From Thermodesulfobacteriota bacterium (GTDB taxonomy: Bacteria > Desulfobacterota > WTBG01 > JAGOGO01): 32,000 bases of DNA. The stretch covers positions 2,802,651-2,834,650 of the forward strand of contig CP113000.1 in assembly GCA_026625185.1 (NCBI GenBank), given 5' to 3'. Shown here in pieces: positions 6,348-30,200 of the stretch. Below the pieces are notes generated by a model. That model did no database searches, was not told where the DNA came from, and worked only from the letters and a program-made list of their open reading frames with translations. Numbering within the stretch: position 1 is the stretch's first letter; every line of letters begins with the position of its first letter. The position numbers were made by a program, and so were the translations under genes.

Positions 6348-7259
6348 GTGATGCGGTACTATTCATTTAGTCAATTTCTGAAAGAAAAGTTTGGAGAACG
6401 GGTTCAGAAGGTCACGCTTGATGCTGGCTTTGGGTGCCCCAATCGAGACGGCACCAAAGGTTGGGGAGGGTGTATTTATTGCGATCGTTTCGGCTCTGGA
6501 AGCGGGACACGGGAAAAGCATCCGGATATAAAGTCGCAGGCTTTGGCAGGAATGGAATCCATAAAAAAGCGATACCAGGCGCATAAGTTCATGCCGTACT
6601 TTCAGTCTTTCTCCAACACCTATGCTCCGGTGAACCAGCTCCGTTCTCTTTACGAGGAAGTAATCCATCTCCCAAACGTCGTTGGAATAGCGGTCGGAAC
6701 CCGTCCCGACTGTTTGACCAAAGAGGCGCTTGACGTGCTCGCCGGTTATGTTCCTCAGAAAATGGTCTGGCTGGAACTCGGCCTTCAGAGCGTCCATGAT
6801 GAAACCTTACGGTTGATTAACCGGGGACATACTTATCAGGAATTTTTAGAAGGCTATCACCTCGCCCGAAAATACCATCTTCTTATTTGTCTCCATGTTA
6901 TTATCGGTCTTCCGGAAGAAAATCGAGAACATGTTCTTGACACCGCCCGCGAAGTCGGCCGATTAAAACCTGACGGTATTAAAATCCATTCTCTTTATAT
7001 CAACCGAGATACTGTTTTGGGAAAAATGTATTGCGAAAAAAAATTCACGCCGATGAAACAAAAAGAATTTGTTGACCTAACCTGCGACTTCCTGGAACTT
7101 TTGCCGCCGACGGTGGTGATCCAGCGTTTAACCGGCGATCCTAATCCAAAAGAATTGGTTGCCCCGGAATGGACCTTAAGAAAAAGTGAAACCCTTCAGC
7201 TCATTCATAGGGAACTGGAAAGAAGAGATAGCCGGCAGGGAAAAAAGTACGCGATTTGA
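6348..7259 (+). CDS. TIGR01212-family radical SAM protein (YhcC-like)
   Basis: 303 aa. FGCPNRDGTKGWGGCIYCD matches the unusual TIGR01212 cluster-binding region, followed by WLELGLQS and IKIHSLY. Confidence 0.85.
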   Translation: MMRYYSFSQFLKEKFGERVQKVTLDAGFGCPNRDGTKGWGGCIYCDRFGSGSGTREKHPDIKSQALAGMESIKKRYQAHKFMPYFQSFSNTYAPVNQLRSLYEEVIHLPNVVGIAVGTRPDCLTKEALDVLAGYVPQKMVWLELGLQSVHDETLRLINRGHTYQEFLEGYHLARKYHLLICLHVIIGLPEENREHVLDTAREVGRLKPDGIKIHSLYINRDTVLGKMYCEKKFTPMKQKEFVDLTCDFLELLPPTVVIQRLTGDPNPKELVAPEWTLRKSETLQLIHRELERRDSRQGKKYAI

Positions 7260-7890: not shown

Positions 7891-9089
7891 TGATACTTAA
7901 ACTCTCCTTTTTCATAAATAATGACTTTTTTCCCTGAGAAAAGGTGGGCGGTAACCATTTTCTCCTCAGTATTAACCAGATCCCAGTGAAGGGCTGAGTC
8001 ATTCAACCCAAGGTGTTTCTTCTTTTCGTGGGTAAGTTCAGCCGGATTTCCTCGGTAGGTATCAGAATAGGAAGAGCCAACCGCAATATGACAGTTTCCC
8101 GAGGGGCCTCCAAAGTTTTCATCAAACAGAGTATTCGCCATAAACCGGTCAATTTTGGAAAACCTTCGGTCAGTCAACGAAAATTCACCCACTCTTTTTG
8201 CTCCGGTATCCATGGCGAGTTGCTTTATGGTAAATTCTTCTCCTTTTTCTGCCTTTATTTTATTCACCGAACCTTTTTTAAATTCCAGCCGTACACCTTT
8301 AACATAGTTGCCGCTGCGAAAAGACGGCTGATTAGCAAAATAGGTCCCTTCAGTTCCTCTCCAATCAGGAGAAAGGAAGAGTTCAAAGCTCGGAATATTG
8401 TGCCCTGAAATACCAATCCACCTCCTCTGTTTGCCCGGAGTAATTCGTAAATCAATATTTTTTGATTCAATGTGGTACCAGTTCACCTTCATGCTATTGA
8501 GCCATTTTTTAATGGTTTGCGCCCTGTTATAAATGGAATTCCATGCTTTAACCGGATTACTTTCATCAAGATAACAGGCCGTTGCTATCTGCCGGGTGTA
8601 TTCCTCAAACGAAAGCCGCGCCTGTTTTGCCAGTTCAAGGGTGGGCAATGTACATAGGGTCCAGCCAAAACTTCCAATTTCTTCCCTTCGTGAAAGTATA
8701 TCGCGGAAAGGTTTTCGCGCAATCAGCGCTTTTGCAATCCTTTTCGGATCAATGTCCTTAAGATGAGTAAGTGACTCGGGTGCGTAAAGGTAAATGGCAC
8801 CATTGAGACTCTCAAAGAGTTCTTTTGTTCCTGGTGCCTGGAAAACAAGCTGGTTTTGGTTTGATTTTTTATAAAAAATTTTTTCCATCGGCACTGTAGG
8901 CCCGAGCCTAAGGACCGGGTTTATTCCTAAACCTAGGAGCTTTTCCTGAAGAATTTCAGCCAGCTTAATTGCCGGCAGGTCATAGTGAACCAAGACGATA
9001 TCGTTTCTTTTATACTGTTTTGTTCTCGCAGTTTTAACTCCCCAAATAAGTACATCCGCATATTGATTCAGTTGTTTTGCAGTCAGCAT
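7887..9089 (-). CDS. Aminopeptidase, M29 (AmpS/PepS/aminopeptidase T) family
   Basis: 400 aa. MLTAKQLNQYADVLI, GEFSLTDRRFS, NTLFDENFGGPSGNCHIAVGSSY and HWDLV are typical M29 motifs. It overlaps the downstream HAD gene by 4 nt. Confidence 0.85.
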   Translation of the reverse strand: MLTAKQLNQYADVLIWGVKTARTKQYKRNDIVLVHYDLPAIKLAEILQEKLLGLGINPVLRLGPTVPMEKIFYKKSNQNQLVFQAPGTKELFESLNGAIYLYAPESLTHLKDIDPKRIAKALIARKPFRDILSRREEIGSFGWTLCTLPTLELAKQARLSFEEYTRQIATACYLDESNPVKAWNSIYNRAQTIKKWLNSMKVNWYHIESKNIDLRITPGKQRRWIGISGHNIPSFELFLSPDWRGTEGTYFANQPSFRSGNYVKGVRLEFKKGSVNKIKAEKGEEFTIKQLAMDTGAKRVGEFSLTDRRFSKIDRFMANTLFDENFGGPSGNCHIAVGSSYSDTYRGNPAELTHEKKKHLGLNDSALHWDLVNTEEKMVTAHLFSGKKVIIYEKGEFKYQ

Positions 9090-9346
9090 TGAGTAACCTC
9101 ATGGATTTTTTTAATAATTTATATTACTAGAGTATTAAGATTAGTTCAGATTTTTCATATCATAAATTTTAGAAAAAATAAAAAAATATATTGACAAATC
9201 GAAATAGAATATATTATTTTTTAGCCCCCATATGGGGAATAAATATAGATTAAGGGCCAAACAATCTAATGCGTATGATGAGCGATAGAGGTGAGAACTG
9301 TGGTGGAAAATTGTGGATGTTTAATAATCAGCAAAGGAGGTGTGAA

Positions 9347-10297
9347 ATGCGACGCGAAAAAATAAAAAATCTGATATTGATGGTACTCACAATAGCCTTA
9401 GTATTCGGAATAAATATTAAGCCGCTGAAGGCAGAAGGAGATTTTGACAAATTTATCAAACCAGTAACCAATCCGGTTTATTTTGATGAACCTTTTAACC
9501 GGACCTATATTCATTTGTTAACTGCTTATCAAAACCTGCCTTCTCATGTAAATACGACGTTAGGAAACGTCGGTCTCGATGGTCATTTACAGTTGACCGC
9601 GCTAAGGATCAATTATGCGGTCAATGAACGGTTTTCAATTGTTGCGGCAAAAGACGGCTATATTGATTTTAAACCTCATAAAACTTTAAAAGATGAAAGC
9701 GGGTGGGGAGACATTGCTGCCGGATTGAAATACGCGTTTCTTCTTGATCCAAAAAATGAATTTGTGCTTTCCGGAAAAGTCCTTTTTGAATTTTCACAGG
9801 GAACCCGTGATGTGTTTCAAGGGAACGGGGACGGGAATGTATCGCCCTCTTTGAGTTTTCTCAAAGGTTATAAAAATTTCCAATTGTGCGGAATCATCGG
9901 CGGTATCATTCCCTTTGACACCAAAGAAGAAAGCGCCGAGCTCTATGACAGCTGGCATATCAGCTATGACCTTATGAGCGGGCTTTGCCGTCCGGAAGCC
10001 ATGAACAAAATTTTTCCCCTTGTCGAGATCAATCATTTTCGCGTGTTGAACAACGGTCATAGTGATGATCTAGTACCCAGTATAGTTAAATTTGAAGGCG
10101 GAGATGTTGTCAATTTAGGCGCACAGAATTCTGATGATCATCCTGATTTTGTGACCATGGGGGTTGGGTTCCGTTATCGGTCAAATTATCCTTGTTTACC
10201 TATAGATTTTGGGTTTGCCTATGAATTTCCTCTTTCTCAAAAAGAAAATGGCCTTATGAGTAACCGGCTTACCTGGGATTTAATGTATCGCTTCTAA
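9347..10297 (+). CDS. Putative outer-membrane beta-barrel protein (transporter / MetA-pathway-like)
   Basis: Start chosen at ATG 9347, preceded by AAGGAGG at 9334-9340. Signal peptide MRREKIKNLILMVLTIALVFGINIKPLKA, alternating beta-strand pattern, and C-terminal aromatic ...DLMYRF. Confidence 0.6.
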   Translation: MRREKIKNLILMVLTIALVFGINIKPLKAEGDFDKFIKPVTNPVYFDEPFNRTYIHLLTAYQNLPSHVNTTLGNVGLDGHLQLTALRINYAVNERFSIVAAKDGYIDFKPHKTLKDESGWGDIAAGLKYAFLLDPKNEFVLSGKVLFEFSQGTRDVFQGNGDGNVSPSLSFLKGYKNFQLCGIIGGIIPFDTKEESAELYDSWHISYDLMSGLCRPEAMNKIFPLVEINHFRVLNNGHSDDLVPSIVKFEGGDVVNLGAQNSDDHPDFVTMGVGFRYRSNYPCLPIDFGFAYEFPLSQKENGLMSNRLTWDLMYRF

Positions 10298-10313
10298 AAA
10301 TAACATTTACTAT

Positions 10314-10366
10314 AAAGGGAGCGCATTGGTTATAAATTCACTTTAATGCTCTCCCTTTTTTATTTT
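10314..10366 (+). terminator. Rho-independent terminator after the OM barrel gene
   Basis: AAAGGGAGCGCATT (10314-10327) pairs with AATGCTCTCCCTTT (10345-10358) with one mismatch, followed by TTTTATTTTT. Confidence 0.7.
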
Positions 10367-10523
10367 TATACTGATTCTTAATCTTATAGCTTCATTTTTC
10401 ACCTTCACCATCAAATACCTTCCTTATTCTTATCTCTTTTTAAAATTAAAAATTTGTTTGTAAATCGCCGTTCTCCAAAGTATAATGATTTTTTTCCTAT
10501 AAAACCGCTATATAAAAAACTAA

Positions 10524-10871
10524 ATGTTTTGTCCTCAATGCAAATCAGAATATCAGGAAGGTGTTGTGATCTGTTGTGATTGCAACATTCCCTTAGTTTC
10601 GGCGCTCAAATGTGAACCCAAACTTGAAGTTGCGGATTTCGAAGAGATTCTTATTACGAATAATGAGGCAGATATTGCGATAATAAAGTCGCTTTTCGAC
10701 AGCGAAGGAATTGTTTACTATTTTCTGGGAGAACATTTTGCCTTTCCGATAAGGCTTATGGTCAACAAAGACCAAGCGGATGAAGCGCGAGAGTTGCTGA
10801 AAGACCTCATCGCATCGTCTTTAGACAATAATAATTCGGATGAGAATTCAAAAGAAACCGAAGAAAAATAA
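10524..10871 (+). CDS. Zinc-ribbon plus DUF2007 (putative signal-transducing) domain protein
   Basis: 115 aa. N-terminal CPQCKSEYQEGVVICCDC zinc ribbon, followed by ILITNNEADIAIIKSLFDSEGIVYYF...LMVNKDQADEARELL, typical of DUF2007. Confidence 0.65.
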   Translation: MFCPQCKSEYQEGVVICCDCNIPLVSALKCEPKLEVADFEEILITNNEADIAIIKSLFDSEGIVYYFLGEHFAFPIRLMVNKDQADEARELLKDLIASSLDNNNSDENSKETEEK

Positions 10872-10887
10872 TCTGTGGATAAAGGCC

Positions 10888-11661
10888 ATGAAACGTCTTT
10901 CTGGTATTCTTTTAATCGGTTTTTTATTTTCCTTGATCCTCGCTGCTGCAACCTCCCCATCCGCGATTGGTCCATGTTATACTTATAAATTAATCAATGC
11001 CTATCCTCACGACCGCACTGCCTTTACCCAAGGATTAATTTACCAGGATGGGTGCCTCTATGAAAGCACCGGCCTGTATGGGCGCTCTTCCCTGAGGCAA
11101 GTAGACCTTAAAACCGGTATGGTTTTAAAAAAACATTCGCTTCCTTCTCTATTTTTTGGTGAAGGTATTACGGTATTCGGCACCAAAATAATTCAACTGA
11201 CGTGGAAATCAAGAATGGGATTCGTATATAACAAAGAAAACTTTGAAGTGCTTCAAACTTTCCGCTATCCCACCGAAGGCTGGGGGATTACCAACGACGG
11301 TCGGCGTTTGATTATGAGCGATGGTTCCTCCACCCTTTTTTTTCTTGATCCGGAAACATTCAGGGAGGTTGATAAAATAGAGGTGCTTGATCAAGATGGT
11401 GCGGCAGTAAAAGGAATTAATGAATTAGAATATATTAAGGATGAGATTTTTGCCAACATATGGCCAACCACTCGCATCGCTCGAATCTCACCTGAAACGG
11501 GCAGGGTGACGGGTTGGCTTGACCTTGCCGGGATTGTACCCTTGGAAAAGGACGCAGATGTTTTAAACGGTATTGCGTATGATGAAAGGAATGACCGTCT
11601 TTTTGTGACCGGGAAATTATGGCCGAAGGTCTTTGAGATAGAGATTTTTAAAATACGATGA
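10888..11661 (+). CDS. Glutaminyl-peptide cyclotransferase (bacterial/plant beta-propeller type), secreted
   Basis: Start taken at MKRLSGILLIGFLFSLILAAA (signal peptide). YPHDRTAFTQGLIYQDGCLYESTGLYGRSSLRQVDLKTG and NGIAYDERNDRLFVTGKLWP are characteristic. Confidence 0.85.
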   Translation: MKRLSGILLIGFLFSLILAAATSPSAIGPCYTYKLINAYPHDRTAFTQGLIYQDGCLYESTGLYGRSSLRQVDLKTGMVLKKHSLPSLFFGEGITVFGTKIIQLTWKSRMGFVYNKENFEVLQTFRYPTEGWGITNDGRRLIMSDGSSTLFFLDPETFREVDKIEVLDQDGAAVKGINELEYIKDEIFANIWPTTRIARISPETGRVTGWLDLAGIVPLEKDADVLNGIAYDERNDRLFVTGKLWPKVFEIEIFKIR

Positions 11662-12697
11662 TTTTTTCTTTAGGTTCAGCGACTACTTCTCCGATAATTA
11701 CTGCCTCAGGTACGTTTTTTCCCCTTAATTGAATAAGAAGACTATCCGCCTTTTCCCTGGGCACAGAAATCAAAAGCCCACCGGAAGTCTGGGGATCAAA
11801 AAAAATATCCGAAATAAAAGGAGGCATTGTGGAGGCAGGATCAACCCATTTTGAAAAAAATTCTTTGTTCCGAAAGGTTCCGGCCGGCATCAAGCCCTGT
11901 TGAGCATATTCCCGAGCCTCTTGAAAATAAGGAACTTTTTGGGCATGGATAACCATTCCGAAATCATTTCCTCTAACCATTTCACACAAGTGCCCTATAA
12001 GGCCAAAGCCGGTAATATCAGTGCAGGCACTTACCCCCACCTCCTGCATAGCCAAAGAAGCATTTTTATTTAATGCAGCCATTGATTCGGATACCTTAGC
12101 GATAACTTTATCATTCGCCATTCCACCTTTGATAGCGGTGTTAATGATACCAGTGCCTAATGGCTTGGTCAGGACCAAAGCATCGCCTACTTTAGCGTTG
12201 GAGTTAGTTAGAATATTATTGGGATGGATAATACCGTTTATTGAAAGCCCGTACTTTATCTCATTGTCTTCAATTGAGTGCCCACCTACTAAGGTGGTTT
12301 CGGCTTCTTTTAGTTTATCCAGTCCACCCCGAAGGATATTCTTTAATATTTCGATGTCCATGGTCTTGATGGGGAAACAGACTAAATTCATGGCGGTAAG
12401 GGGCTTCCCTCCCATGGCATAAACATCAGAGAGGGCATTAGCCGCGGCAATTTGGCCAAACCAGTACGGGTCATCAACAATGGGAGTAAAAAAATCTACG
12501 GTTTGAATGATCGCCAGGTCCTCGGATAATTTGTAGACCCCGGCATCATCGGATCTCTCGAATCCTACTATCAAGTTAGGGTCCTGCATTACCGGCAATC
12601 CGCAAAGCGCTTTATCCAGGTCCCCCGGACCTAATTTTGATGCTCAACCCGCGCCCTTAACGGTCGTAGTAAGACGAAGTTTTTTCTGTTCTTCCAT
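11648..12697 (-). CDS. selD: Selenide, water dikinase SelD, selenocysteine-containing (in-frame UGA at 12644-12646)
   Basis: The ORF track starts at 12598, but the same frame continues upstream through one TGA to ATG 12697 and reads [55 protein letters not shown]. The U aligns with catalytic Cys17 of E. coli SelD (GAGCGCK). Total length is 1050 nt, which is 350 codons, so the extension is in frame. Confidence 0.9.
12618..12632 (-). promoter_or_regulatory. Candidate bacterial SECIS hairpin of selD
   Basis: Minus-strand AGGUCC-GGG-GGACCU: a 6-bp perfect stem with a G-rich apical loop, starting 11-12 nt 3' of the UGA. Confidence 0.6.
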
Positions 12698-12815
12698 GGC
12701 TACTATCCGCAACCCTGCCTTTCTCGTTTGGTTTTTTTCACAAATCAAACTTGCATATCAATCATAACCAAAAGAAAAAATCAAGCCGAAATAGCAGACT
12801 CAAAAAAGACGATAG

Positions 12816-13058
12816 CTAAAGTGGGCAGATGCCTTGAATATCCAGGTTGCTTTCAATGAGAACCTTTTTTACTCTGGACTCCTCTTTGGTTTCAAAGCGG
12901 ACACAAATTCCGCAATCCGAGCTTAGGTGCCTGGGCACAGGAATAAGCTTGAAAGCCACATTTTCAGCTTTCAATAATTTCTCGGCCCGGAGCGCTCCGC
13001 TTACTGAATAAAAAAGCGCCACCCTATAATTCTTTTCCGGTTCTTCATTAAAGCTCAA
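12816..13058 (-). CDS. DUF3343 (putative Se/S carrier-like) protein
   Basis: 80 aa. YRVALFYSVSGALRAEKLLKAENVAFKLIPVPRHLSSDCGICVRF matches the DUF3343 pattern seen next to yedE/yedF genes. Confidence 0.8.
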   Translation of the reverse strand: MSFNEEPEKNYRVALFYSVSGALRAEKLLKAENVAFKLIPVPRHLSSDCGICVRFETKEESRVKKVLIESNLDIQGICPL

Positions 13059-13629
13059 TTACTTTACCCGCTCCCAACAATGTTGAGGCAATATCATACA
13101 TATTTGAAATCCGACCTATTGCCACCTTATCTTTTATCTCAAAATAACCCAAACAGGTTCCGCAGGCAAGAATATCAATTCCTTTTTCCCCAAGAACACG
13201 CAGATCTTCCAAAACCGGTGATGATTCGACTACCAGTTTAACCCCGGTGTTGAGAAAAATAATCTTCTCGGGAAGCGGGAAAATCTCTCCCAGCGTGTGC
13301 AGAAAGGAGCGCATCAGCAACTGTCCCAGCTCCTCACTGCCGCGGCCAAAGGCATCAGAGGCAATTAGAAAAACGGTCGAACCGGTTTTTTCCTCAGGCC
13401 GCACTGTTTCAGATTCGGCCCTTTCCAGGCTGAGCTGCAGATAAAATAACCCATCTTTCTCTTCGGTTTCAACCCGAAACCCTTTGCTTCTGGCCAAACG
13501 GGATACATTCTCCTTTGCTGCTTCATTATCAACAATGGTGGTGATCGCGTCGGATTCTCCTAAAGCCCGATTGGTCAAAACAACCGGTTGGGGGCATGAA
13601 AGCCCGCGGGCGTCAATAACTATCGCCAT
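13048..13629 (-). CDS. yedF: Selenium metabolism protein YedF, long form (TusA/SirA-like N-domain plus DsrE-like C-domain)
   Basis: 193 aa. N-terminal IDARGLSCPQPVV (TusA CPxP motif). The C-terminal half reads FLIASDAFGRGSEELG...ILACGTCL. Sits in selenium gene context. Confidence 0.8.
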   Translation of the reverse strand: MAIVIDARGLSCPQPVVLTNRALGESDAITTIVDNEAAKENVSRLARSKGFRVETEEKDGLFYLQLSLERAESETVRPEEKTGSTVFLIASDAFGRGSEELGQLLMRSFLHTLGEIFPLPEKIIFLNTGVKLVVESSPVLEDLRVLGEKGIDILACGTCLGYFEIKDKVAIGRISNMYDIASTLLGAGKVIEL

Positions 13630-13640
13630 ATAATCTCCTT

Positions 13641-14804
13641 TTATTTGGCCTTGGAAGCAATTTTTGCGATTGCTTCGAGAAATGTCTTGATATTGTCTTC
13701 GGTGGTGAAATACCCGGGACTTATCCGCACAGTTCCTAAAGGAAAAGTTCCCAGTGTCTTATGGGCCAGAGGAGCGCATTGAAGTCCAGGACGACACATA
13801 ATATTATAATCCTCATCCAATTGCAATGCCACCTCAGAGGAAGAAAGCCCGGCGATATTAAAAGAAACCACCGCCACTTGTTGGCGAGGATCCCCGCTTC
13901 CATAAAGGGTTACTTTGGGGATCGTCTGAATCTCTTCAATAATGCGTCTTGTTAAGTTTTCCTCTCTTGGGCGGAGATTAGCGATACCTTGAGAAAGAAT
14001 AAATTTAACTCCAGCTGCCAGTCCCGCTAACCCGACCGTGTTCGGTGTGCCGCTTTCGTATTTATCGGGAAGAAAACTCGGCTGGTGTTCTGATTCGGAC
14101 CGGCTTCCCGTGCCCCCCCGCATCAGAGGCTTAAGAACGTCTTCTACTCCTTTGGCGACACAAAGCCCGCCGGTTCCGGGAGGACCAAAAAGCAACTTAT
14201 GGCCGGAAAAAGCAAGTAAATCGATGTTCATCACCTTAATATCAATTGGAAAAGCCCCGGCGGTCTGAGCCGCATCCACGCAAAAAATCACATTGTGTCG
14301 CCGGGCAATAGCGCCGATTTCCGCCACCGGCACGAGCGTGCCCACAACATTGGAGGCATGATTCAGGATAATAAGTCGGGTCTTCGACTTAATGGTTTTT
14401 CCCACGTCTTGCGGATCAAGAAAGCCTTCCGCCGAGCAATTGACGGTGGTTATTTCAACCCCCTGGTCTTCCAGAGCACGAAGCGGCCGCATCACCGAGT
14501 TGTGTTCCATGGTGCTGGTTATAACATGATCTCCCGGCCGCAGGATGCCGCGTACCGTCAGATTCAATGCTTCGGTTGCGTTTTTTGTGAATATGACGCG
14601 CAGAGGATCGTCAAGATTAAAAAGCTGTGCGATGATTTCCCTCGCTTCGTAAACCACGCGGCCCGCCTCGATGGAAAGCCGATGTCCGGAGCGACCAGGA
14701 TTGGCCCCAATATGGCGCATAAAGTTTTCCATCGTCCGATAGACTTCTTCCGGCTTGGGCCAGGAGGTTGCTGCATTGTCCAAATAAATTAAGTTATTAT
14801 CCAT
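13641..14804 (-). CDS. Class-V aminotransferase: cysteine desulfurase / selenocysteine lyase family
   Basis: 387 aa. IYLDNAATSWP, TSTMEHNSV, the FSGHKLLFGPPGTGGL PLP-lysine motif and the active-site loop RGGTGSRSESEHQP. Confidence 0.85.
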   Translation of the reverse strand: MDNNLIYLDNAATSWPKPEEVYRTMENFMRHIGANPGRSGHRLSIEAGRVVYEAREIIAQLFNLDDPLRVIFTKNATEALNLTVRGILRPGDHVITSTMEHNSVMRPLRALEDQGVEITTVNCSAEGFLDPQDVGKTIKSKTRLIILNHASNVVGTLVPVAEIGAIARRHNVIFCVDAAQTAGAFPIDIKVMNIDLLAFSGHKLLFGPPGTGGLCVAKGVEDVLKPLMRGGTGSRSESEHQPSFLPDKYESGTPNTVGLAGLAAGVKFILSQGIANLRPREENLTRRIIEEIQTIPKVTLYGSGDPRQQVAVVSFNIAGLSSSEVALQLDEDYNIMCRPGLQCAPLAHKTLGTFPLGTVRISPGYFTTEDNIKTFLEAIAKIASKAK

Positions 14805-14848: not shown

Positions 14849-15607
14849 TCAAGAAACCAGTTGCCCCGCATAGAGAGCGGCGCCTAAAGCTCCGACAGTC
14901 TGCGGGCTATCGGGCACAGTCAGCGGAACTCTCATTACCTGTGCCAAAAGTTTACACATACACGGGTTATAAGCCACGCCGCCGGCAAAAATAAATCTCG
15001 GCTGTTGTCCTACCCGGCGCACCATCGCGCTTACACGATCAACAATGGCCTGGTGAATCCCCTGTGCCACGCAACGGCTGTCTTCTCCCCGGCCGGTTAG
15101 TGAGACCACTTCGGATTCGGCAAAGACCGCACACATACTCGAAAGCCGGACCGCTTTTCCTTCCGCATTCAGCGCGTGTTCACCCAATTCCTTGATATCT
15201 AAACCTAAGGCATTCGCCATATTTTCCAAAAAGCGGCCTGTCCCGGCGGCACAACGATCGTTCATCTCAAATCTTCCCACGCCCCCGTCTGATTTTACCA
15301 GAATAACTTTGCTGTCCTGTCCTCCGATGTCGAGCACTGTCCGAACATCAGGAAAAAAATGATGGGCGCCGATGGCATAGGCTTTTATTTCGGTGATGAC
15401 CTCATCCGCAAGTTTGCGTTCAACGACCAGATGTCGCCCATAGCCGGTGGCAACCAGCCGGTCATAGGAGCGACCGTTGATCAAACGCTGCGAATTTATG
15501 AAGGGATCGACCCCGGTATACGCAACTTCTTCCCGCGTAATTCGCTCCCCATCCCACTCCACCAAGGCAATCGTCCTTGAACCGATATCCAGTCCGGCAG
15601 TCAACAT
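14849..15607 (-). CDS. BadF/BadG/BcrA/BcrD-type ATPase; activase (archerase) of a 2-hydroxyacyl-CoA-dehydratase/DCCP-type reductase
   Basis: 252 aa. GLDIGSRTIALV (ASKHA phosphate-1), DIGGQDSKVI, NDRCAAGTGRFLE and SSMCAVFAESEV, which carry the two Cys that bridge the [4Fe-4S] cluster in HgdC-like activators. Confidence 0.85.
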   Translation of the reverse strand: MLTAGLDIGSRTIALVEWDGERITREEVAYTGVDPFINSQRLINGRSYDRLVATGYGRHLVVERKLADEVITEIKAYAIGAHHFFPDVRTVLDIGGQDSKVILVKSDGGVGRFEMNDRCAAGTGRFLENMANALGLDIKELGEHALNAEGKAVRLSSMCAVFAESEVVSLTGRGEDSRCVAQGIHQAIVDRVSAMVRRVGQQPRFIFAGGVAYNPCMCKLLAQVMRVPLTVPDSPQTVGALGAALYAGQLVS

Positions 15608-15661
15608 TCTATTTCTCCAGGTTTTCCATACCTGACAAACTTCTAAAAATTCAACAAACCG

Positions 15662-16819
15662 TTATATCATTTCCAGAAAAGCCTCAATCCGCACCCTCAT
15701 AGTTTCCCGATCAGCATCGGAAAAATCAGTTGTTAGGTGCAGGAAAGGTTTTTCAAGCTTGTTCTTGACCAAATCGGCAACCCAATATGACTCTATATTA
15801 TAGGTGTGACAGCCGTGCCAAGTCAAATCAACAACGCCGTCAACAGCAAAGTCATGAATCATCCTCTCCAGGAGTTGGATGCGTTTTTTATTAGGTGACA
15901 TCACCGAACACGGAATGCCGACCTGCTTTTCAGCCAACAATAAGATGGGATCGCGGCAATCGGTTTCATCAATGCGCAAATCCAAACTTTTGTAGCCGCC
16001 GCAGATCTCCATTGCGACCACCAAACCGCCATACTCTTCAACCAATGAAACCACCTTATCATCATTTTCACCCAACGGAGTTCCGGTTAACAATATCCGC
16101 GGTGTTTTTTCGTTGCCGACATGATAACCTTGCTGAGCCTTTTTTTTAATTTCTTCTGTTAACCTATCAATCAGGGCAACTCCCGACATTCGATCAATGC
16201 TGTATCCTGCCTGAGCAACAATCACCAGCAGGTCCTTACCGGAAAGCAGAGCCGGTTTATTCCGGTTGAGATCAAACAGTTCCTTTCGGGCGCGAGCTTC
16301 TTCGTTGGTCACATGAATCGCCTCACGCAATGCCTCATCGGTTATTTTAACTCCCAATTCTTTTTCAATCGCAGTTTTGAGCCTCCGCACCTCGCTTTTC
16401 CACAACGTAATTGACATAGGTAAATCCGGGATTTGAGGTAGGTTCATCACATGGATCGGCTTGATGCGCTGCAGTATCTCATACATTTTTTTTTTGCCGT
16501 CGCAGGTGGTTTCAGCGACGATCATATCTGAGGCATGAAAAAAAGGACAGGTATCGCTAACCGCCAAATCATACGATGATCTGATAATCGGGCAGAGATT
16601 AGGAGGCAAATCATTATCAGCGGCAAGGAATGGTTCTTTCTTGTTCCCACATAAAGGAACCGCGATAGCCCCGGCCGCAAGCGCCAATTCTACCGGGCTG
16701 TAGGCGCAGTAATGGCCGATTACCTTTTTGCCTTCTTTTTTGGCCGATAAAAGGGCCCCAATATTTTCATTTCGCGTTTCTGAAAGTGCTGAAAAAAGTT
16801 CAGACCGTAATTCAAGCAT
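15662..16819 (-). CDS. 2-hydroxyacyl-CoA dehydratase / BcrC-BadD / double-cubane-cluster-protein (DCCP)-like reductase component
   Basis: 385 aa. GHYCAYSPVELALAAGAIAVPLCG, NLCPIIRSSYD, AETTCDGKKKMYE and the conserved Cys spacing are typical of the HgdB/DCCP superfamily. It lies directly upstream of its cognate activase. Confidence 0.8.
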   Translation of the reverse strand: MLELRSELFSALSETRNENIGALLSAKKEGKKVIGHYCAYSPVELALAAGAIAVPLCGNKKEPFLAADNDLPPNLCPIIRSSYDLAVSDTCPFFHASDMIVAETTCDGKKKMYEILQRIKPIHVMNLPQIPDLPMSITLWKSEVRRLKTAIEKELGVKITDEALREAIHVTNEEARARKELFDLNRNKPALLSGKDLLVIVAQAGYSIDRMSGVALIDRLTEEIKKKAQQGYHVGNEKTPRILLTGTPLGENDDKVVSLVEEYGGLVVAMEICGGYKSLDLRIDETDCRDPILLLAEKQVGIPCSVMSPNKKRIQLLERMIHDFAVDGVVDLTWHGCHTYNIESYWVADLVKNKLEKPFLHLTTDFSDADRETMRVRIEAFLEMI

Positions 16820-16890: not shown

Positions 16891-17109
16891 TTACTCTTTG
16901 TTAATGGTAAGGTGATATTCGTTCCCTTCGGTCTGAATCTGTTTCACCTTCCACCCTTTGCTCGCTACTGCGCGGGCTACATTTTCTTTGGCAGTATCAT
17001 TGTCAACCAAAACCACCATCTCTCCTTTTTCCAGTAACTCCATTCCCTTTAACGTCACCAGCACCGGCTGAGGACAGGAAAGTCCACGTGCATCAATTTT
17101 TTTTAACAT
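16891..17109 (-). CDS. TusA/SirA-family sulfur (selenium) carrier, short YedF-like
   Basis: 72 aa. KIDARGLSCPQPVLVT is the CPxP motif. It lies immediately downstream of yedE, as in the E. coli yedE-yedF pair. Confidence 0.85.
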   Translation of the reverse strand: MLKKIDARGLSCPQPVLVTLKGMELLEKGEMVVLVDNDTAKENVARAVASKGWKVKQIQTEGNEYHLTINKE

Positions 17110-17120: not shown

Positions 17121-18215
17121 TTATGCGACCTTATTTCTCATAGTGCCACCAATGAAAAGACAAACAAAAATTCCGACAACAACCGCTGCAATACCATGCG
17201 GTCCAATTCCTTGAGGGGAACTGGCTAACCCAAAATTATGGGCAAAAGCCGCGCCAACAATCATCCCCAGAACAAAAATCGCCGCATCCCCATCTCCCTC
17301 TCCAGCCAGAAATAATTGCCTTCCGGGACAGCCACCGGCAAGAGCAAACGCGAGTCCCGCCAAAGCCATCCCGCTGAAGTTCCACAGACCCATGGTGTGG
17401 GCAATCGGTTGATTCTGGAAACCCGGATGAAATTGCCCAAGTATCATATTCATAATAAAGGCTGCCACAATAAGGGCAACAACCCCTGAAAAAAGATGGA
17501 GTTGCCGGAACAAAATAAGGTCCCGGAAAGCACCCATGGTACAGAACCGGCTTCGTTGGGCCAGAAAACCCACTGCCACCCCGGCAATCAAAGACATTAC
17601 CAGCGGAGCATGCATTGCGCCCGGCCCCTTTGCGCTGTAAAGAAGAACTCCGCTGCTCTCTTGCCCTTCAAGAGGAGGAAAAATTATCCGTAAAAATAAA
17701 AATCCCATCATGATCAGCGGCAAAATCCAACCCACCGGAGTAAGCGTCGGCTGAGAGCGCCCCAGGTTGTATCCGCCTCTGAAAAATAACGTCCCGATCC
17801 AAATGCCAAAAATCAGGCCGAGCAAGCCCAATATCGCGTTTCCATCCCCGCCGGCAAGCCGTAATAAAGTCCGCCAGGGGCATCCGAGAAAAACCAGCGC
17901 CCCGATCATGGCAAATACTCCAAGAACAAACCGCACAATGGGAGCGGAACCCGCACGGGCCCGAAATTCTTTAAAGAGGTAGGCTGCAAGCAAAGACCCC
18001 AAGACAAAACCAATGATCTCCGGTCGCATATATTGCACCACCGCTGCCCGATGAAGTCCTAAGGCCCCGGCAATATCCCGCTCAAAACAGGCAACGCATA
18101 TCCCCATATTACCTGGGTTGCCGAACTTTTGTAAAAGGGGCGCAAGGATTCCGATAACTGCCCCTACCCCAATGATTCCCCAGCGGCCAGCAAATATGTT
18201 TTTCAGGCCATTCAT
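17121..18215 (-). CDS. yedE: YedE/YeeE-family membrane protein (putative selenium/sulfur compound transporter)
   Basis: 364 aa, polytopic. GNMGICVACFERDIAG, RSRFCTMGAFRD and GGCPGRQL are conserved Cys-containing re-entrant motifs of the YedE/YeeE family. Confidence 0.85.
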   Translation of the reverse strand: MNGLKNIFAGRWGIIGVGAVIGILAPLLQKFGNPGNMGICVACFERDIAGALGLHRAAVVQYMRPEIIGFVLGSLLAAYLFKEFRARAGSAPIVRFVLGVFAMIGALVFLGCPWRTLLRLAGGDGNAILGLLGLIFGIWIGTLFFRGGYNLGRSQPTLTPVGWILPLIMMGFLFLRIIFPPLEGQESSGVLLYSAKGPGAMHAPLVMSLIAGVAVGFLAQRSRFCTMGAFRDLILFRQLHLFSGVVALIVAAFIMNMILGQFHPGFQNQPIAHTMGLWNFSGMALAGLAFALAGGCPGRQLFLAGEGDGDAAIFVLGMIVGAAFAHNFGLASSPQGIGPHGIAAVVVGIFVCLFIGGTMRNKVA

Positions 18216-18270: not shown

Positions 18271-19677
18271 CTAAAAACCCATTGCTGCCTGAAAGGTAAC
18301 GAGGTTTTGATCTTTTCCGCTGAATTCACCCTGAGGGCTATTAACTTCTTTCCGCTGATCGATGAAGGTCCAATCCAGGGTAAGTTTTGCATCATGGCCC
18401 TTAATTAAATAGTTCAGGTCTAAAGAAGTGAAGGCGGTGTCAGGCTTTTGGTCTACCGCCAGCCTTTCATAGCGAAGATAGGGTTGAATTCTCCCTGTCC
18501 CAATTTTGCAAGGTAAAAGATAGCCTCCCTGAATATAATAAATTTGAGCGTTATCTCCACTAATAAGCCGGCTATATTTAAGGGTCTGAGTCACGTTTTT
18601 TACATCAATAAAGGCGGACTCGACAGTTACTGCCCCTTGCCCAACAGGATGGTCGAAAAAGAGGTCGACTGTCCATCCGATATTATTTTGATCAAGTTTT
18701 TTACTTAAAACAAGGCCCTCTTGATAATCAAACCCAGCGCCAAGTGCCAAAACTTTTTTCGCACCGAGATAAGATCCCTGGTTAAACCAGGTCGTTTCCG
18801 CCTACAAAAGGTTAAGTGAGACTCTTCCAGAAAACCGGAGGTTATCGTTTGGATTGTCGGTATTACTTTCAACCCCCTCAGACATACCAAGTCGGTACTG
18901 AAGCAAACCTTTAAATAAATTTCCCCAGAGAACCATTCCATCATCCCGCCCCACTTTACTTGCATAAAAAATGCTTCCCCGTACTCCCCCCTGGTTAAAT
19001 GGAAGTTCGAGGGGCAGCAAAGTAAAAGTTGATGTGGTACCGAAACTTCTGGTAAAGGGGACGTACATCCTTCCCATTTGAATCTTAAATGACTCGTTCA
19101 AGTTATAGTAAATCCAAGCATCGCGAACCGCAATGCCGCTTCCCAGTCCTACAGATGAGTTATCCAGCCCATCCTGACCGATACGATCACCGGCGATATG
19201 GGCAAAAAATCCGATTTTGGGAGTAACTTCTCCTGATAGATAAAAATAGAACCTGCGTAGCATAAAATCATTAAGATTTTTAGTACCGCTCTTTTTCCCA
19301 TCTTCCATAAACTGATACCACGTCTGCAAGCGCAAACCGGCCTTTAGCTTGTGCTCTTCCATAAACCTGGCTACTCGCTCAAAAGAAAAATGCTGTTCAT
19401 CGACCTTAGTTTTTAGCTCACTAACAGTAGTTTTTAGCTCTTCGACTTCAGTTTGGGGGGACACAGTTTGTTTTTTCGTTTCTTTTTCTAAAACCATAAT
19501 CCTGTTTTTTAATATTTCCAACTCGGCATCTCTTCTTTGTTCGATCTCTTCTATCTTTTTCTTCAGCATTTCAATTTCTGCATCCTTTGACTGGGCGAAT
19601 ACCAGATTTGGGTGAAGAAAAATCAGCCCGGCGGTTAAAAACGTTAATGCTGTCATTGCTGCTAATCTTCTCATCAC
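18271..19677 (-). pseudogene. Porin (OprO/P-like, N-terminal coiled coil) interrupted by a single in-frame TAG at 18802-18804
   Basis: ORFs 18802-19677 and 18271-18750 are in the same frame (19677-18750 = 927, divisible by 3). Read-through gives ...RFSGRVSLNLL*AETTWFNQGSYLGAKKVLALGAGFDYQ... as continuous beta-strand sequence. Signal peptide MMRRLAAMTALTFLTAGLIFLHPNLVFA, and a C-terminal ...FQAAMGF. Confidence 0.65.
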
Positions 19678-19864: not shown

Positions 19865-20776
19865 TTAAGGTAGGTTTGTTTCGGTTTTTGCTTTTTCGAG
19901 GAGATAATTAAAAAATGATTCACATAGGGGTGATTTGAATTTCCCGCGCCGGAGAACAATATAAAAATCACGAAAAGTTTTTATTTTTTCAATTGAGACC
20001 GCTTTCAGGGTTCGGTTATTTAAATTCTCCTGGACTGCCCGGCGTGACAATATCGAACAACCGATCCCGCTCTTTATCGCCTGTATAACTGCGGTTGTGC
20101 TGCCCAGTCTCATAATCACATTTAAGTGGCCGCTGTCAAACCCATGGTCTCTCAAACTCTTTTCCATGACCATGCGTGTTCCACTGCCTTCCTCGCGAAG
20201 CACAAAAGGGACTTCTTTCAGTTTCTCCAGCGTAATAGATTTCATTTTTCCCCAGACGGAACTCGGAGGAGCAACAAGCACTAACTCATCTTTGACAAAC
20301 TTATGGAAGTCCAGCTTGGCATTCTCCATAACAGCGCCAACAATACCAAGCTCAATCCGGTTATTGACAATATCATCAATAACTTTTTTTGTATCCCCAA
20401 TGGTCAGTTTTATAATAATATCGGGAAAATTATCTCTAAAGTCTTTAATAAGTGAAGGTAAGATATATTCCCCCGGGATAGTGCTCGCCCCTACTACAAG
20501 ATCACCTTTGAGCGCACCCTTGAGGCTCCATAGTGTTTGTTCCGCCTCGCTTTTTAATCTTAAAATTTTCTGTGCGTAATCATAAAGAATACTGCCTGCT
20601 TTGGTAGGAAGCACTTCTCTTCCTAATCGGTCAAGGAGGGTAGTACCCAGATAATCTTCTAACGCCTTGATATGCTCGGTAAGGGTTGGTTGAGAAAGGT
20701 GTGAGGCTTCGGCGGCCCTGGAAAAGCTTCCCAATTCGACTATTTTACAAAATATTTCTATTTGATTAAACTTCAC
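19865..20776 (-). CDS. LysR-family transcriptional regulator (selenium-cluster associated)
   Basis: 303 aa. N-terminal wHTH FCKIVELGSFSRAAEASHLSQPTLTEHIKALEDYLG plus a LysR substrate-binding domain. Confidence 0.9.
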   Translation of the reverse strand: MKFNQIEIFCKIVELGSFSRAAEASHLSQPTLTEHIKALEDYLGTTLLDRLGREVLPTKAGSILYDYAQKILRLKSEAEQTLWSLKGALKGDLVVGASTIPGEYILPSLIKDFRDNFPDIIIKLTIGDTKKVIDDIVNNRIELGIVGAVMENAKLDFHKFVKDELVLVAPPSSVWGKMKSITLEKLKEVPFVLREEGSGTRMVMEKSLRDHGFDSGHLNVIMRLGSTTAVIQAIKSGIGCSILSRRAVQENLNNRTLKAVSIEKIKTFRDFYIVLRRGKFKSPLCESFFNYLLEKAKTETNLP

Positions 20777-22122: not shown

Positions 22123-22817
22123 AATATCTTCCTCCTGTTTAAGGATTGATGAGGATTAATTATAATTTGATTCTTTTTACCAGATTGTAACTGCATTGTA
22201 AAGGATTTTTTTTATTTTTAGGCATTTTTTTCAGATCTGGGTAATGAAGAAAGTGGAGAAGCCAATTTCACCCTTCTTTATTCGGTGCTCCTATGCTGCA
22301 CATTGCCATTGTCAAAGGGAGTCATGAATATCTTAAAACGCCTTTCATACAATGGTTAGACCAAATCGTGTCAGTAATGAGTTTATTTATAGCAGGCATG
22401 CTATTATCAGTATCGCAGTCATGCTTTAGTTTCAGTTAAAATCATTTATTCCTCCGGTTACTTTTTAGTTATGCGTTATCAAATCAGTAATCAATGTTCC
22501 CTACCGAAGTACGCAATGGGATTTTTTACCCTGCTTTCGAGTTACTAAAGAAAAAAAACCGCAGAGCTCATAACGCCACCCCCAAAAACGTTTATAATAA
22601 AACCCGACAACGATAAGATTGCCCACCTTATTAGTATTGAAACCGGGGCTCACAATAATATGTGGAAAATCGTTCTCCATAAGACAATATCTTGAACATC
22701 CGCCGAAATTTATAATAAGAAAACCATAATTTTTCTTGACGGCTATGGAAATTTGTCATAACGTTATGGTGACAAAATAATTTGTTAACACGAAAATTCC
22801 TTCTCTTAGGAGGGTTG

Positions 22818-23414
22818 ATGACCATGGAAGAAATAAAATCTCTTTATAAAAAGGCCGGAGAATTTCATGGGAGTGTATGCGCAGGTATAATATTGGGAGT
22901 CCGGATGGCTTGCCTGGCGTGCCGAATGCATGGCATAAACGATCCCAATAGCCCGGAAAATCGCAAACAATTAATGACCTGGGTGGAAATCGACCGGTGT
23001 GCTACTGATGGTATCCAAAGCGTAACCGGTTGTTCTCCGGGACGTCGCACTCTTAAAGTAATGAATTATGGAATTATGGCGGCTACATTTTTAAATTTAT
23101 TTTCCCAAAAAGCCTTCCGTATTTCCGTTCATCCTGATTCCCGCAATAAAGCCAAAGCGCTTTTCCCTGAGTTGACCGATAGTAATCATATCTATATAGA
23201 AGCCTATAAGCAAATGACCGACGACGATCTTTTTGTGGTAGAAGAGGTTAGGGTAGAGGTCCCGGAACGGGAAATGCCCGGCCCACCCCCCAAACGGACC
23301 GCGTGTTCTATTTGCCGCGAGGAAATTCATATGGGTTGTGAAATAATAAAGGAAGACAAAACACTCTGTCGGCGCTGTGCGGACATGCCCCTTTATTATA
23401 CTCCGCTGAAATAA
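22818..23414 (+). CDS. FmdE-family protein with C-terminal zinc ribbon
   Basis: Start at ATG 22818 after AGGAGGG. EFHGSVCAGIILGVRMA and VEIDRCATDGIQSVTGCSPGRRTL are FmdE motifs. C-terminal CSICREE...CRRC. Confidence 0.8.
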   Translation: MTMEEIKSLYKKAGEFHGSVCAGIILGVRMACLACRMHGINDPNSPENRKQLMTWVEIDRCATDGIQSVTGCSPGRRTLKVMNYGIMAATFLNLFSQKAFRISVHPDSRNKAKALFPELTDSNHIYIEAYKQMTDDDLFVVEEVRVEVPEREMPGPPPKRTACSICREEIHMGCEIIKEDKTLCRRCADMPLYYTPLK

Positions 23415-23496: not shown

Positions 23497-24531
23497 ATGT
23501 TAGAAAAGATTAAATTACAAGATGCAATTGGAACAGTTCTTGCTCATGACATCACTGAGATTAAGGCAGATCATAAGTTTAAAGGACGCGCCTTTAAAAA
23601 AGGGCACATTATCACTAAAGATGATATCCCCCGACTACTGGACCTGGGGAAAGAAAATCTCTTTTTTATTAAAATCACCGATGATGAAGTCCATGAAAAT
23701 GAAGCCGGGGAACGAATTTCCCGAGCGATCGCCGGTAAAGGGGTTTATCTTTCCGACGAAGTAAAAGAAGGACGGGTCAATCTCTACGCAGCTTATGATG
23801 GGTTACTCCGGATAAATACTGTGGCTTTGGAAGAACTAAACCTCATCGATGAGGTAATGTGCGCTACCCGCCACAATAATTTTCTGGTAAAAAAGGGAGA
23901 AATGCTTGCGGGCACGAGAACAATTCCGTTGTTGATAAAAAGAAAAACGGTGGAGAAAGTCGAAAACATATCATTAAAATATGGAAAAATAGTCGAGGTT
24001 CTACCATTAAGGTCAATAAAGGCGGGCCTTCTGATCACCGGAAACGAAGTATATCATGGCCGTATTAAGGATGCTTTTGAACCAATAATGCGGGAAAAAA
24101 TAAAAAAAATTGGTTCGGAAGTAATCAAGGCAATCTTTGTTCCTGATGAGGTCACTATGATCGCCGAGGGAATAAAAAACCTTATTGCTGCGGGTGCGCA
24201 ATTAATTATTCTAACTGGTGGGATGTCGGTGGACCCGGATGATCTCACATTAAAGGGGGTAAAAGAAATCGGCGCCACCATCACTTCGTATGGCGCTTCA
24301 GTATTGCCCGGCGCGATGTTTTTAATGGCCTATAGTGGTGAAATTCCTATCCTGGGAGTTCCGGCCTGTGGAATGTACCATAAAAATACTATCTTTGATT
24401 TAATCCTGCCGAGGGTTTTAGCCGGGGAAAAGATCGGAAAACCGGAAATAGCAAAATTAGGGCATGGAGGCCTCTGCCTCGATTGTCCCACATGCGACTT
24501 TCCGCATTGTGGTTTTGGGAAAGGAACGTAA
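23497..24531 (+). CDS. Molybdopterin-binding protein (short MoeA-N-like plus MoaB/MogA MoCF-biosynthesis domain, Cys-rich C-terminus)
   Basis: 344 aa. LQDAIGTVLAHDI (MoeA N-like), LITGNEV...ILTGGMSVDPDDLT (MoCF domain) and the C-terminal CLDCPTCDFPHCGFG. Confidence 0.8.
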   Translation: MLEKIKLQDAIGTVLAHDITEIKADHKFKGRAFKKGHIITKDDIPRLLDLGKENLFFIKITDDEVHENEAGERISRAIAGKGVYLSDEVKEGRVNLYAAYDGLLRINTVALEELNLIDEVMCATRHNNFLVKKGEMLAGTRTIPLLIKRKTVEKVENISLKYGKIVEVLPLRSIKAGLLITGNEVYHGRIKDAFEPIMREKIKKIGSEVIKAIFVPDEVTMIAEGIKNLIAAGAQLIILTGGMSVDPDDLTLKGVKEIGATITSYGASVLPGAMFLMAYSGEIPILGVPACGMYHKNTIFDLILPRVLAGEKIGKPEIAKLGHGGLCLDCPTCDFPHCGFGKGT

Positions 24532-28283: not shown

Positions 28284-28356
28284 GATGTAAAAATCCCCTT
28301 TAAGAGTGAATGGGGGCTTACGGCTTGACCCATCCGCAGTGCCCCGGTCAAAAACA

Positions 28357-28527
28357 CTATTTCTTCTCGCTCTTGTCACCATTCTTGTCATCAGCGACTG
28401 TTTTATCATCCTTTGTTGCAGGACCCCCGCAACCTTCTCCCGGGCCTCAAGAACATCCACCAGTTTTAGCCATAGATTCCATAATCGCCGACCAGAAGCC
28501 CTTTTTCTTTTTCTCTTCATTTTTCAT
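28357..28527 (-). CDS. Candidate small selenoprotein (56 aa with UGA read as Sec) or 26-aa leader peptide
   Basis: GAGGTGA (28539-28533) plus 5 nt leads to ATG 28527. Peptide: MKNEEKKKKGFWSAIMESMAKTGGCS-[TGA 28449-28447]-GPGEGCGGPATKDDKTVADDKNGDKSEKK-TAG. A hairpin follows 12 nt after the TGA. Confidence 0.45.
28415..28434 (-). promoter_or_regulatory. Candidate SECIS hairpin for the small ORF
   Basis: Minus strand GGUUGCGGG-GGU-CCUGCAAC: 8 bp including one G-U pair, with a GGU apical loop. It resembles the E. coli fdhF SECIS apex GGUUGCAGGUCUGCACC as I recall it. The spacing from the UGA is the same as in selD in this window. Confidence 0.45.
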
Positions 28528-28576
28528 CTTAATCACCTCTCTTCGTGGACATATAATGAAATTAAACTTTTTTCCT

Positions 28577-29365: not shown

Positions 29366-29487
29366 CTCAGAACCTCCATCGTTCCTTGTTTTACTCAACA
29401 ATTTTCAGACATCGTAATGCCCTGGGCCAAGTCTCAATAAAATTCTCCATGCTAAAACGCTATGCTTTTAAAAGTGTTTTCCGTGTT

Positions 29488-30117: not shown

Positions 30118-30200
30118 GGCGAATACAAGGCCCAGGGGTTGTGCGAGGCAACCTGTTGCAGGGAGTTGGTTATTGATTCAAGCATGAAACACCCCTTTTC

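Follow-up and report, generated by a model that had tools for sequence, protein, structure and literature searches.

Analysis of a 32,000-nucleotide stretch of the genome of a Thermodesulfobacteriota bacterium (assembly GCA_026625185.1, contig CP113000.1, positions 2,802,651 to 2,834,650; the whole stretch is hereafter called the window) revealed that a double-cubane cluster protein (DCCP) and its activase, an ATPase of the DCCP reductase (DCCP-R) type, form the only redox enzyme in a putative minus-strand operon that otherwise spans selenium uptake to the selenophosphate synthetase SelD. Building on the observed gene identities, cluster-ligand conservation, fold, operon layout and cross-genome association, we hypothesised, with confidence a little short of even, that DCCP and the activase act as an ATP-driven, very-low-potential reductase which supplies SelD with selenide freed from selenium that has been imported or is bound to carriers. 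The operon brings together two acknowledged gaps, namely the physiological role of DCCPs and the selenium species and delivery system that feed SelD. A role in selenium reduction had already been proposed in a preliminary description of this DNA; its operon context and its cross-genome link to selenium were borne out, while the specific chemistry is kept here as a proposal and DCCP proved to be only an optional module.

The DCCP gene (15662..16819, minus strand) encodes a 385-aa protein of the short YjiM-like form, which matched PF06050 and passed the family model NF040772 with 459.7 bits (cutoff 350), the match covering positions 3-372 of the 372-position profile. A comparison with the solved DCCP of Carboxydothermus hydrogenoformans (6ENO/7YYL) gave E=1e-69, and Cys38, Cys57, Cys76, Cys106, Cys273, Cys304 and Cys337 aligned with the cysteines of 6ENO that make up the published 7-Cys motif (six cluster ligands and one nearby cysteine). 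The spacings of these residues (X18, X18, X29, X166, X30 and X32) were at most 1-2 residues off the published ranges, and all seven cysteines were invariant in 28 homologues and in all 94 family open reading frames (ORFs) collected. An AlphaFold2 model (pLDDT 91, pTM 0.89) showed the two-Rossmann-domain DCCP fold; its top Foldseek matches were 7YYL_A and 6ENO (TM 0.93, root-mean-square deviation 2.0 Å, E about 1e-32), whereas dehydratase and benzoyl-CoA reductase subunits fitted less well (TM 0.80-0.86). Since the N-terminus is ca. 38 residues shorter than that of 6ENO, the window DCCP resembles the short YjiM-like class. According to Jeoung and Dobbek, short YjiM-like DCCPs are devoid of the channel-closing N-terminal helices, and the resulting open channel suggests a larger substrate.

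The activase gene (14849..15607, minus strand) begins 54 bp downstream of the DCCP gene and encodes a 252-aa DCCP reductase/HgdC-type archerase ATPase (TIGR00241, 212.8 bits against 125.4). The protein matched 4EHT (HadI), 7YYL_E (DCCP-R) and 1HUX (HgdC) with E values from 1e-43 to 1e-50 and carries the N-terminal ATP-binding motif GLDIGS at residues 5-10. Cys119 (NDRCAAGTGRF) and Cys159 (SSMCAVFAESEV) align with the cysteine motifs of 4EHT; we take these two residues to be the ligands that bridge a [4Fe-4S] cluster in the dimer, by analogy to the DCCP-R structure paper (C115 and C152) and to HgdC. Judged from the family models passed, the cluster cysteines kept and the modelled DCCP fold, the two genes encode a bona fide DCCP/DCCP-R pair, for which an [8Fe-9S] cluster and its ATP-dependent reduction are predicted from the family.

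DCCPs share with the 2-hydroxyacyl-CoA dehydratases HgdAB/HadBC and the class I benzoyl-CoA reductases BcrBC/BzdNO the superfamily, the ATP-driven injection of electrons and a homologous activase. In the dehydratases and benzoyl-CoA reductases, however, two different subunits, each with a single [4Fe-4S] cluster, form a heterodimer that has a funnel for CoA esters, whereas the window encodes a single HGD-D protein with the double-cubane cysteine set. A catalytic subunit of 2-hydroxyacyl-CoA dehydratase or benzoyl-CoA reductase was excluded: the protein fell widely short of the equivalog cutoffs (HadC, 95 against 700; BzdN, 56 against 454; BcrC, 48 against 421), the window holds only one HGD-D gene instead of an alpha/beta pair, and the genes around it encode selenium carriers instead of enzymes of CoA metabolism.

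An ORF check and NCBIfam/Pfam profile matches placed the ten minus-strand genes named in the preliminary description exactly where it had put them, and all of its gene identifications proved correct. The first gene of the same-strand run encodes a LysR of the selenium-metabolism type (19865..20776; NF040786, 315.5 bits against 250), followed by an outer-membrane porin of the Porin_O_P type that is distantly ExtI-like (18271..19677; PF07396), the putative inner-membrane selenium transporter YedE (17121..18215; TIGR04112, 487.7 against 200) and a 72-aa TusA-type carrier, a short-YedF-like partner of YedE (16891..17109; PF01206, 66.7 bits). After DCCP and the activase come a pyridoxal phosphate (PLP)-dependent cysteine desulfurase, SclA-like and possibly a selenocysteine (Sec) lyase (13641..14804; TIGR01977, 492.9 against 377), long YedF (13048..13629; TIGR03527, 207.9 against 110), a small protein of the DUF3343/Se_S_carrier family in its 80-aa short form with the motif SSDCGIC (12816..13058; PF11823, 77.6 against 25) and SelD in its selenocysteine form (11648..12697; TIGR00476, 366.7 against 125). 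The selenium-utilisation set YedE, YedF, DUF3343, LysR and SelD thus passed its models one by one, with all members on one strand together with selD.

The intergenic gaps 3' of the porin gene ranged from -11 to 118 bp, the negative value being the 11-nt overlap of the DUF3343 start with the YedF end, and the gap between LysR and the porin was 187 bp. With this gene spacing, a single transcript for the ten-gene run is plausible. Terminator-like sites inside the run (13 found, 13.6 expected from shuffled sequence) were neutral on transcript structure. The downstream end of the operon faces a convergent glutamine cyclotransferase gene, and a PilZ gene lies upstream of LysR. An Rfam scan at the gathering threshold and an ARAGORN search over the window returned zero RNA families, tRNA-Sec or riboswitches.

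The putative carriers retain their cysteines: the TusA-like protein has the active-site motif ARGLSCPQP (Cys12), and long YedF consists of an N-terminal TusA domain (Cys12) and a DsrE-like C-terminal domain (Cys156 and Cys159). No solved structure of DUF3343 was found by sequence search. The desulfurase passed the broader TIGR01977 and scored below the cutoff of the SclA model NF040779 (410 bits against 525). The SelD frame opens with the ATG at 12697 and runs through a TGA (12646-12644) that lies in frame within the motif GAGUASKLGPG (read-through MEEQKKLRLTTTVKGAGU-ASKLGPGDL). A hairpin at 12616-12634, 10 nt past the UGA, is a possible selenocysteine insertion sequence element; since it folds no better than shuffled sequences (z 0.58), the selenocysteine call in SelD rests on homology. 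The porin gene is one continuous 468-codon frame except for a single in-frame TAG at 18802-18804 (...LNLL*AETTWF...), which had escaped the preliminary description and reflects either a recent pseudogene or an assembly or consensus error in the metagenome-assembled genome. Membership in the ExtI porins failed on the score (NF040900, 59 bits against 150) and on the interrupted frame.

The hypothesised route of selenium is as described below. Selenium would enter via the porin and YedE and would be held on the cysteine carriers TusA, long YedF and DUF3343, or the SclA-like PLP enzyme would mobilise it from selenocysteine; in both cases, it would be bound as a perselenide or selenotrisulfide, roughly at the Se(0) level. 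Ferredoxin or flavodoxin would donate an electron to the activase, which, with ATP hydrolysis, would transfer it to the [8Fe-9S] cluster of DCCP, which would convert carrier-bound (or free oxidised) selenium into selenide. From this selenide, SelD would make selenophosphate, and the selenium-type LysR may govern the gene set. In this scheme, we infer which substrate is used and in which direction selenium flows, as well as the co-transcription and the regulation. The recurring partners, which are small cysteine carriers and a Sec-lyase-like enzyme, keep chalcogen at the level of sulfane or Se(0), and reduction of imported or carrier-bound selenium to selenide would be the most economical reading. 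The potential of the Se(0)/HSe- couple is ca. -0.72 V (pH 7, 1 M) by our own calculation from standard potentials, a range in which coupling electron transfer to ATP is sensible; a citable value was not found in the literature. Published DCCP work has shown that the cluster resists dithionite and Ti(III) citrate and that its reduction needs ATP. It has also been reported that YeeE/YedE relatives take up thiosulfate or zero-valent (sulfane-level) sulfur through cysteines and that YedE transcripts of Methanococcus increase under selenium starvation.

The genes around DCCP in other genomes were surveyed in 80 loci (one genome per GTDB species, 40-61% identity to the window DCCP, flanks of up to 10 kb on each side; individual loci are given as L numbers), in which all stop-to-stop ORFs were translated and searched iteratively with the window proteins. 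At least one of YedF-long, DUF3343, SelD and YedE was found within 10 kb of DCCP in 22 of the 80 loci. DUF3343 was present in 16/80 (16 of 17 ORFs within 3 kb), YedF-long in 13/80 (12 of 13 within 3 kb), the desulfurase in 9/80 (all nine within 3 kb), SelD in 6/80 (four of six within 3 kb) and YedE in 3/80 (both of the two ORFs with at least 60% query coverage within 3 kb), and these neighbours mostly share the strand of DCCP. On the assumption of one gene copy and a genome of 3 Mb, about 0.4 loci per family were expected, giving binomial P from 1e-2 to 1e-20, values that are to be read with the phylogenetic non-independence of the species and the lack of a comparison with non-DCCP HGD-D paralogs in mind. 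Among loci with full flanks, 12/37 were selenium-linked.

The LysR next to DCCP passed the selenium-LysR model in six loci (L010, L013, L045, L065, L083 and L084) and fell short by 4 bits in L020, and a tandem rhodanese lies directly 3' of DCCP in L002, L013 and L037. When selenium-type LysR genes and adjacent rhodaneses are counted, five more loci are linked, which brings the linked loci to 27/80 in all, spread over at least five phyla (Bacillota, Thermodesulfobacteriota, Actinomycetota, Synergistota and Pseudomonadota). The activase was located within 1 kb of DCCP in 59/80 loci. When neighbouring ORFs were clustered without bias, only the activase (60 loci) and parts of ABC transporters (ATPase, 36 loci) ranked ahead of the carrier families, which came next. 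The module DCCP-activase-desulfurase-YedF-DUF3343 recurred in L049, L064, L065, L066 and L068. The selenium linkage of DCCP is thus beyond chance. That small cysteine carriers (DUF3343, YedF and, in three loci, rhodanese) are the top partners of DCCP after the activase and ABC parts, even in E. coli, had previously gone unremarked.

In L013 (Geomonas edaphica, 8156-14104), a selenium-type LysR gene is divergent from activase, DCCP, tandem rhodanese and transglutaminase-like genes; rhodanese stands in for DUF3343/YedF as the adjoining cysteine carrier in this locus and in L002 and L037. A transglutaminase-like protein is among the YedF partners in Table 1 of Lin et al. 2015.

The preliminary description had named, as a refuting outcome, a lack of enrichment of selenium genes around DCCP in other genomes, and the 22 linked loci show that they are enriched. 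DCCP loci were strongly enriched for YedF, DUF3343, the SclA-like desulfurase, SelD and the selenium-type LysR. The enrichment does not single out the subclade of the window DCCP; the whole NF040772 family is linked. When 94 members of the family were placed in a neighbour-joining tree, linked loci were scattered among the short forms, and the long-form clade was linked too. A single selenium-linked DCCP subclade was ruled out by this tree, as linkage occurs both in the short forms, E. coli yjiM included, and in the long ones.

The long DCCP paralogs (424-484 aa) constitute a separate clade, and DUF3343 lies 0-4 bp downstream of them in 9 of 12 cases. They were found in L011 (2538-4079), L022, L025, L037, L047, L053, L066 and L078, and most of these loci also encode a short DCCP and one activase, so that a system of two DCCPs is suggested. 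It is the long form that was crystallised (L011 against 6ENO, 473 bits over the full length), and it adjoins YedE in six metagenome loci. In E. coli, the yjiM-yjiL-DUF3343 region was matched in 5386 of the 5426 complete genomes, with this gene order annotated by RefSeq under the best matches (e.g. NZ_CP033092.2, 4079943-4082040). The enterobacterial yjiM-yjiL loci of the survey are L071 and L080. The E. coli triad offers a tractable model for the link between DCCP and the carrier.

A second survey was anchored on YedE and covered 80 metagenome loci (L085-L164) with YedE at 72-81% identity. TusA was next to YedE in 77/80 and DUF3343 was present in 62/80, giving the core order YedE-TusA-DUF3343; SelD (17/80), LysR (12/80) and the desulfurase (8/80) were also found. 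The window looks like this core operon into which four genes (DCCP-activase-desulfurase-YedF-long) have been placed after TusA and before DUF3343. An 86%-identical relative has the same operon (YedE-TusA-DCCP-activase-desulfurase-YedF-DUF3343-SelD) plus a long DCCP paralog upstream of YedE. The window and this relative represent an unusually complete arrangement, comprising the porin, YedE, the carriers, DCCP with its ATPase, the Sec-lyase-like enzyme and SelD, and name the proteins for a reconstitution.

Two further features of the YedE loci were observed. A conserved Carb_kinase-like gene (ca. 290 aa) follows DUF3343 in 45/80 of them (L085:11857-12789, plus strand, and 44 others); its product scored 46.9 bits with Pfam Carb_kinase (YjeF_C/NAD(P)H-hydrate dehydratase-like) and below the cutoff of TIGR00196. 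This gene was not found in the window or in the six desulfurase-containing YedE loci checked (L087, L089, L090, L094, L096 and L135). Its role as a substitute for DCCP was ruled out by the presence of both together in five loci, and it may be an unrecognised ATP-dependent member of selenium operons. In addition, many YedE loci carry a long form of DUF3343 (ca. 190 aa) with a C-terminal GGGCPDVPY extension (L111:1572-2162, plus strand; the form also occurs in L007:2709-3260, minus strand).

Close DCCP relatives beside DUF3798-type ABC importers were found at L083:3047-17344, at L084:9029-17292 and on contigs of P0008 and P0016. The L083 locus is a B12-binding/MtaA-like (mlp-type) cluster, and the DUF3798 binding protein is without an NCBIfam match; in L083 and L084, the selenium-type LysR gene is paired with a small tautomerase gene. 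The constant theme among the relatives is an importer with DCCP and the activase, often under a selenium regulator.

Several observations weigh against a selenide-forming role of DCCP. Only 7/80 YedE loci, and 5/29 of those of at least 10 kb (about 9-17%), carry DCCP; because so few do, DCCP is optional in selenium operons and not required in cis. In the DCCP survey, 53/80 loci were without a selenium-linked gene inside 10 kb, and several DCCP paralogs are common within single genomes, a multiplicity that suggests several substrates. The relatives at 62-69% identity adjoin DUF3798-type or SBP_bac_1-type ABC importers instead of YedE, one of them lies in a corrinoid/MtaA (mlp-type) cluster and two have a divergent selenium-type LysR; from the ABC and corrinoid surroundings, the substrate of DCCP may be another imported compound. 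Thiol or thioredoxin chemistry, or direct transfer from NifS-like perselenides, can feed SelD in vitro without a dedicated reductase, and the classical E. coli sel screens are not known to have yielded genes other than selA-D, though yjiML is present in E. coli. Furthermore, the neighbourhood data do not separate a DCCP that acts on selenium from one that needs it.

If DCCP were a client that needs selenium, the desulfurase/Sec-lyase, YedF and DUF3343 would supply sulfur or selenium for its cluster, for example a selenium-bridged [8Fe-8S-Se] one, and its gene would belong to the selenium regulon since the activity needs selenium. The occurrence of DUF3343 0-4 bp after the long paralogs in those nine cases, and after E. 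coli yjiM-yjiL, without SelD or YedE nearby is in line with this, and a desulfurase beside an Fe-S enzyme recalls NifS in nif clusters. Haft & Gwadz raised it as a formal possibility after finding 955/970 DCCPs in SelD-containing genomes. However, recombinant DCCP made in E. coli was active with a sulfide bridge in published work, and Fe-S scaffolds and known selenium-insertion factors were absent among the recurrent neighbour families. Besides, DUF3343, YedF and TusA accompany YedE/SelD far more often without DCCP, which argues against maturation as their primary role; since YedE-TusA-DUF3343(-SelD) sets occur mostly without it, the carriers appear to serve SelD, with DCCP as an add-on. We regard a client role as unlikely. 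It is similarly unlikely that DCCP reduces an organo-chalcogen or another small molecule brought in by the importer (methylated selenides or diselenides, selenocyanate, a sulfonate-like or an organometallic compound), which in the window would be a specific selenium compound, not carrier Se(0). Such a function agrees with the occurrence, among the 80 DCCP loci, of ABC-transporter ATPases (36 loci), SsuA/NMT1-like (8) and DUF3798 (6) binding proteins and MtaA-like methyltransferases (7), with the ABC importers and the mlp-type corrinoid/MtaA cluster under a selenium-type LysR beside the closest relatives, and with published links to SAO loci and methyl-selenide clusters. However, neither an ABC importer nor a corrinoid protein nor a methyltransferase is encoded in the operon of the window, and the recurrent partners are cysteine carriers, not small-molecule enzymes; the idea also overlaps with the hypothesised selenide release, as selenide would arise from an imported form in both.

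It may further be asked whether sulfur, not selenium, is the element handled, with YedE, TusA, the DsrE-like protein and the desulfurase moving sulfane sulfur, DCCP reducing persulfide or polysulfide and SelD being a mere neighbour. All carrier families do belong to sulfur-transfer superfamilies, the YeeE/YedE relatives mentioned above import thiosulfate or zero-valent sulfur, and the Pfam name of DUF3343 is 'Se/S carrier'. We nevertheless find this quite improbable: the selenium-specific models TIGR04112, TIGR03527 and NF040786 were passed while TsuA models gave only 29-38 bits against cutoffs of 400-645, SelD closes the operon both in the window and in the 86%-identical relative and accompanies YedE in the 17 loci noted above, and persulfide reduction does not need a potential below that of dithionite. 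Least probable of all, and disfavoured, is an acyl-CoA-type dehydratase or reductase that neighbours the selenium genes by chance. The Pfam class of DCCP is HGD-D, and older annotations call such proteins 2-hydroxyacyl-CoA dehydratase, but the scores lie far under the dehydratase and benzoyl-CoA reductase cutoffs, the 7-Cys DCCP motif is present, the single HGD-D gene stands in an operon without CoA-pathway genes, and the adjacency recurs in at least five phyla, far above chance.

The release of selenide by DCCP for SelD can be extended to a more general proposal, which we advance only tentatively: DCCP/DCCP-R may be the missing dedicated selenium reductases of anaerobes, with ATP-energised electrons at the [8Fe-9S] cluster serving to produce selenide for SelD from perselenides on cysteine carriers (TusA, YedF, DUF3343 or rhodanese). 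If true, the double-cubane cofactor would gain its first physiological function, and the selenide-forming step of selenium assimilation its first assigned enzyme.

The association of DCCP with selenium is already in print, and the window is a clean new example of it. Haft & Gwadz, whose count refers to strong NF040772 matches, proposed the processing of a selenium compound or a selenium-bridged cluster. In Table 1 of Lin et al. 2015, an activase and a dehydratase subunit are among the top STRING partners of YedE, YedF, DUF3343 and LysR (Slackia), without comment, and a later preprint labelled DCCP/DCCPR as putative selenium-metabolism genes. A 2026 review describes the in vivo selenium donor to SelD as unresolved and does not mention DCCPs. 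What the present analysis adds is the anatomy of the operon, partner statistics centred on the carriers, the coupling of the long paralog to DUF3343 and the E. coli triad; their value lies in a sharper testable mechanism, not in a new kind of system.

The window pair resembles the C. hydrogenoformans DCCP/DCCP-R (CHY_0487/0488; 6ENO, 7YYL) in the family model, the seven cysteines, the fold (TM as given above) and the two-gene layout with an ASKHA [4Fe-4S] ATPase. It differs in that the two DCCPs share ca. 33% identity by structural alignment and the C. hydrogenoformans protein falls in the long-paralog clade, whereas the window has the short form. E. coli YjiM-YjiL likewise combines a short DCCP and an activase, followed by the cysteine carrier DUF3343, but shows ca. 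40% identity (from L071 and L080) and has no adjoining YedE, YedF-long, desulfurase or SelD. All five families of the YedE-YedF/DUF3343/LysR/SelD sets of Lin et al. 2015 are present in the window, with the core order seen in 62-77 of the 80 metagenome loci, and the window adds the DCCP-activase-desulfurase-YedF-long insert to them. The SAO loci and type 1 mlp clusters (Haft & Gwadz; Balskus-lab preprint) also place DCCP and the activase beside selenium-linked import, and the L083 relative, at 63% identity, lies in such an mlp cluster under a selenium-type LysR. Sao proteins, a corrinoid protein and an MtaA-like methyltransferase are, by contrast, absent from the window, whose importer consists of YedE and the porin.

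Other genes in the window were also inspected. The left end (954-2189, minus; 6348-7259, plus; 4666-5364, minus; 5586-6251, plus) encodes two radical-SAM proteins with the Radical_SAM_C domain, one WbqC-like protein and one ATP pyrophosphatase of the diphthamide-synthase-like type, all of which appear unrelated to the DCCP finding. Ca. 2 kb upstream of the operon, proteins with an FmdE domain and a MoCF_biosynth domain are encoded at 22782-23414 and 23497-24531 (both plus strand); an FmdE gene, together with a tautomerase gene, also lies upstream of the operon on the contig of the 86%-identical relative. A separate metal- or metalloid-handling cluster (26379-31322, minus strand, as the operon) comprises a P-type ATPase, a protein with a GAF domain and a protein of 373 aa that bears an ArsD domain at its N-terminus.

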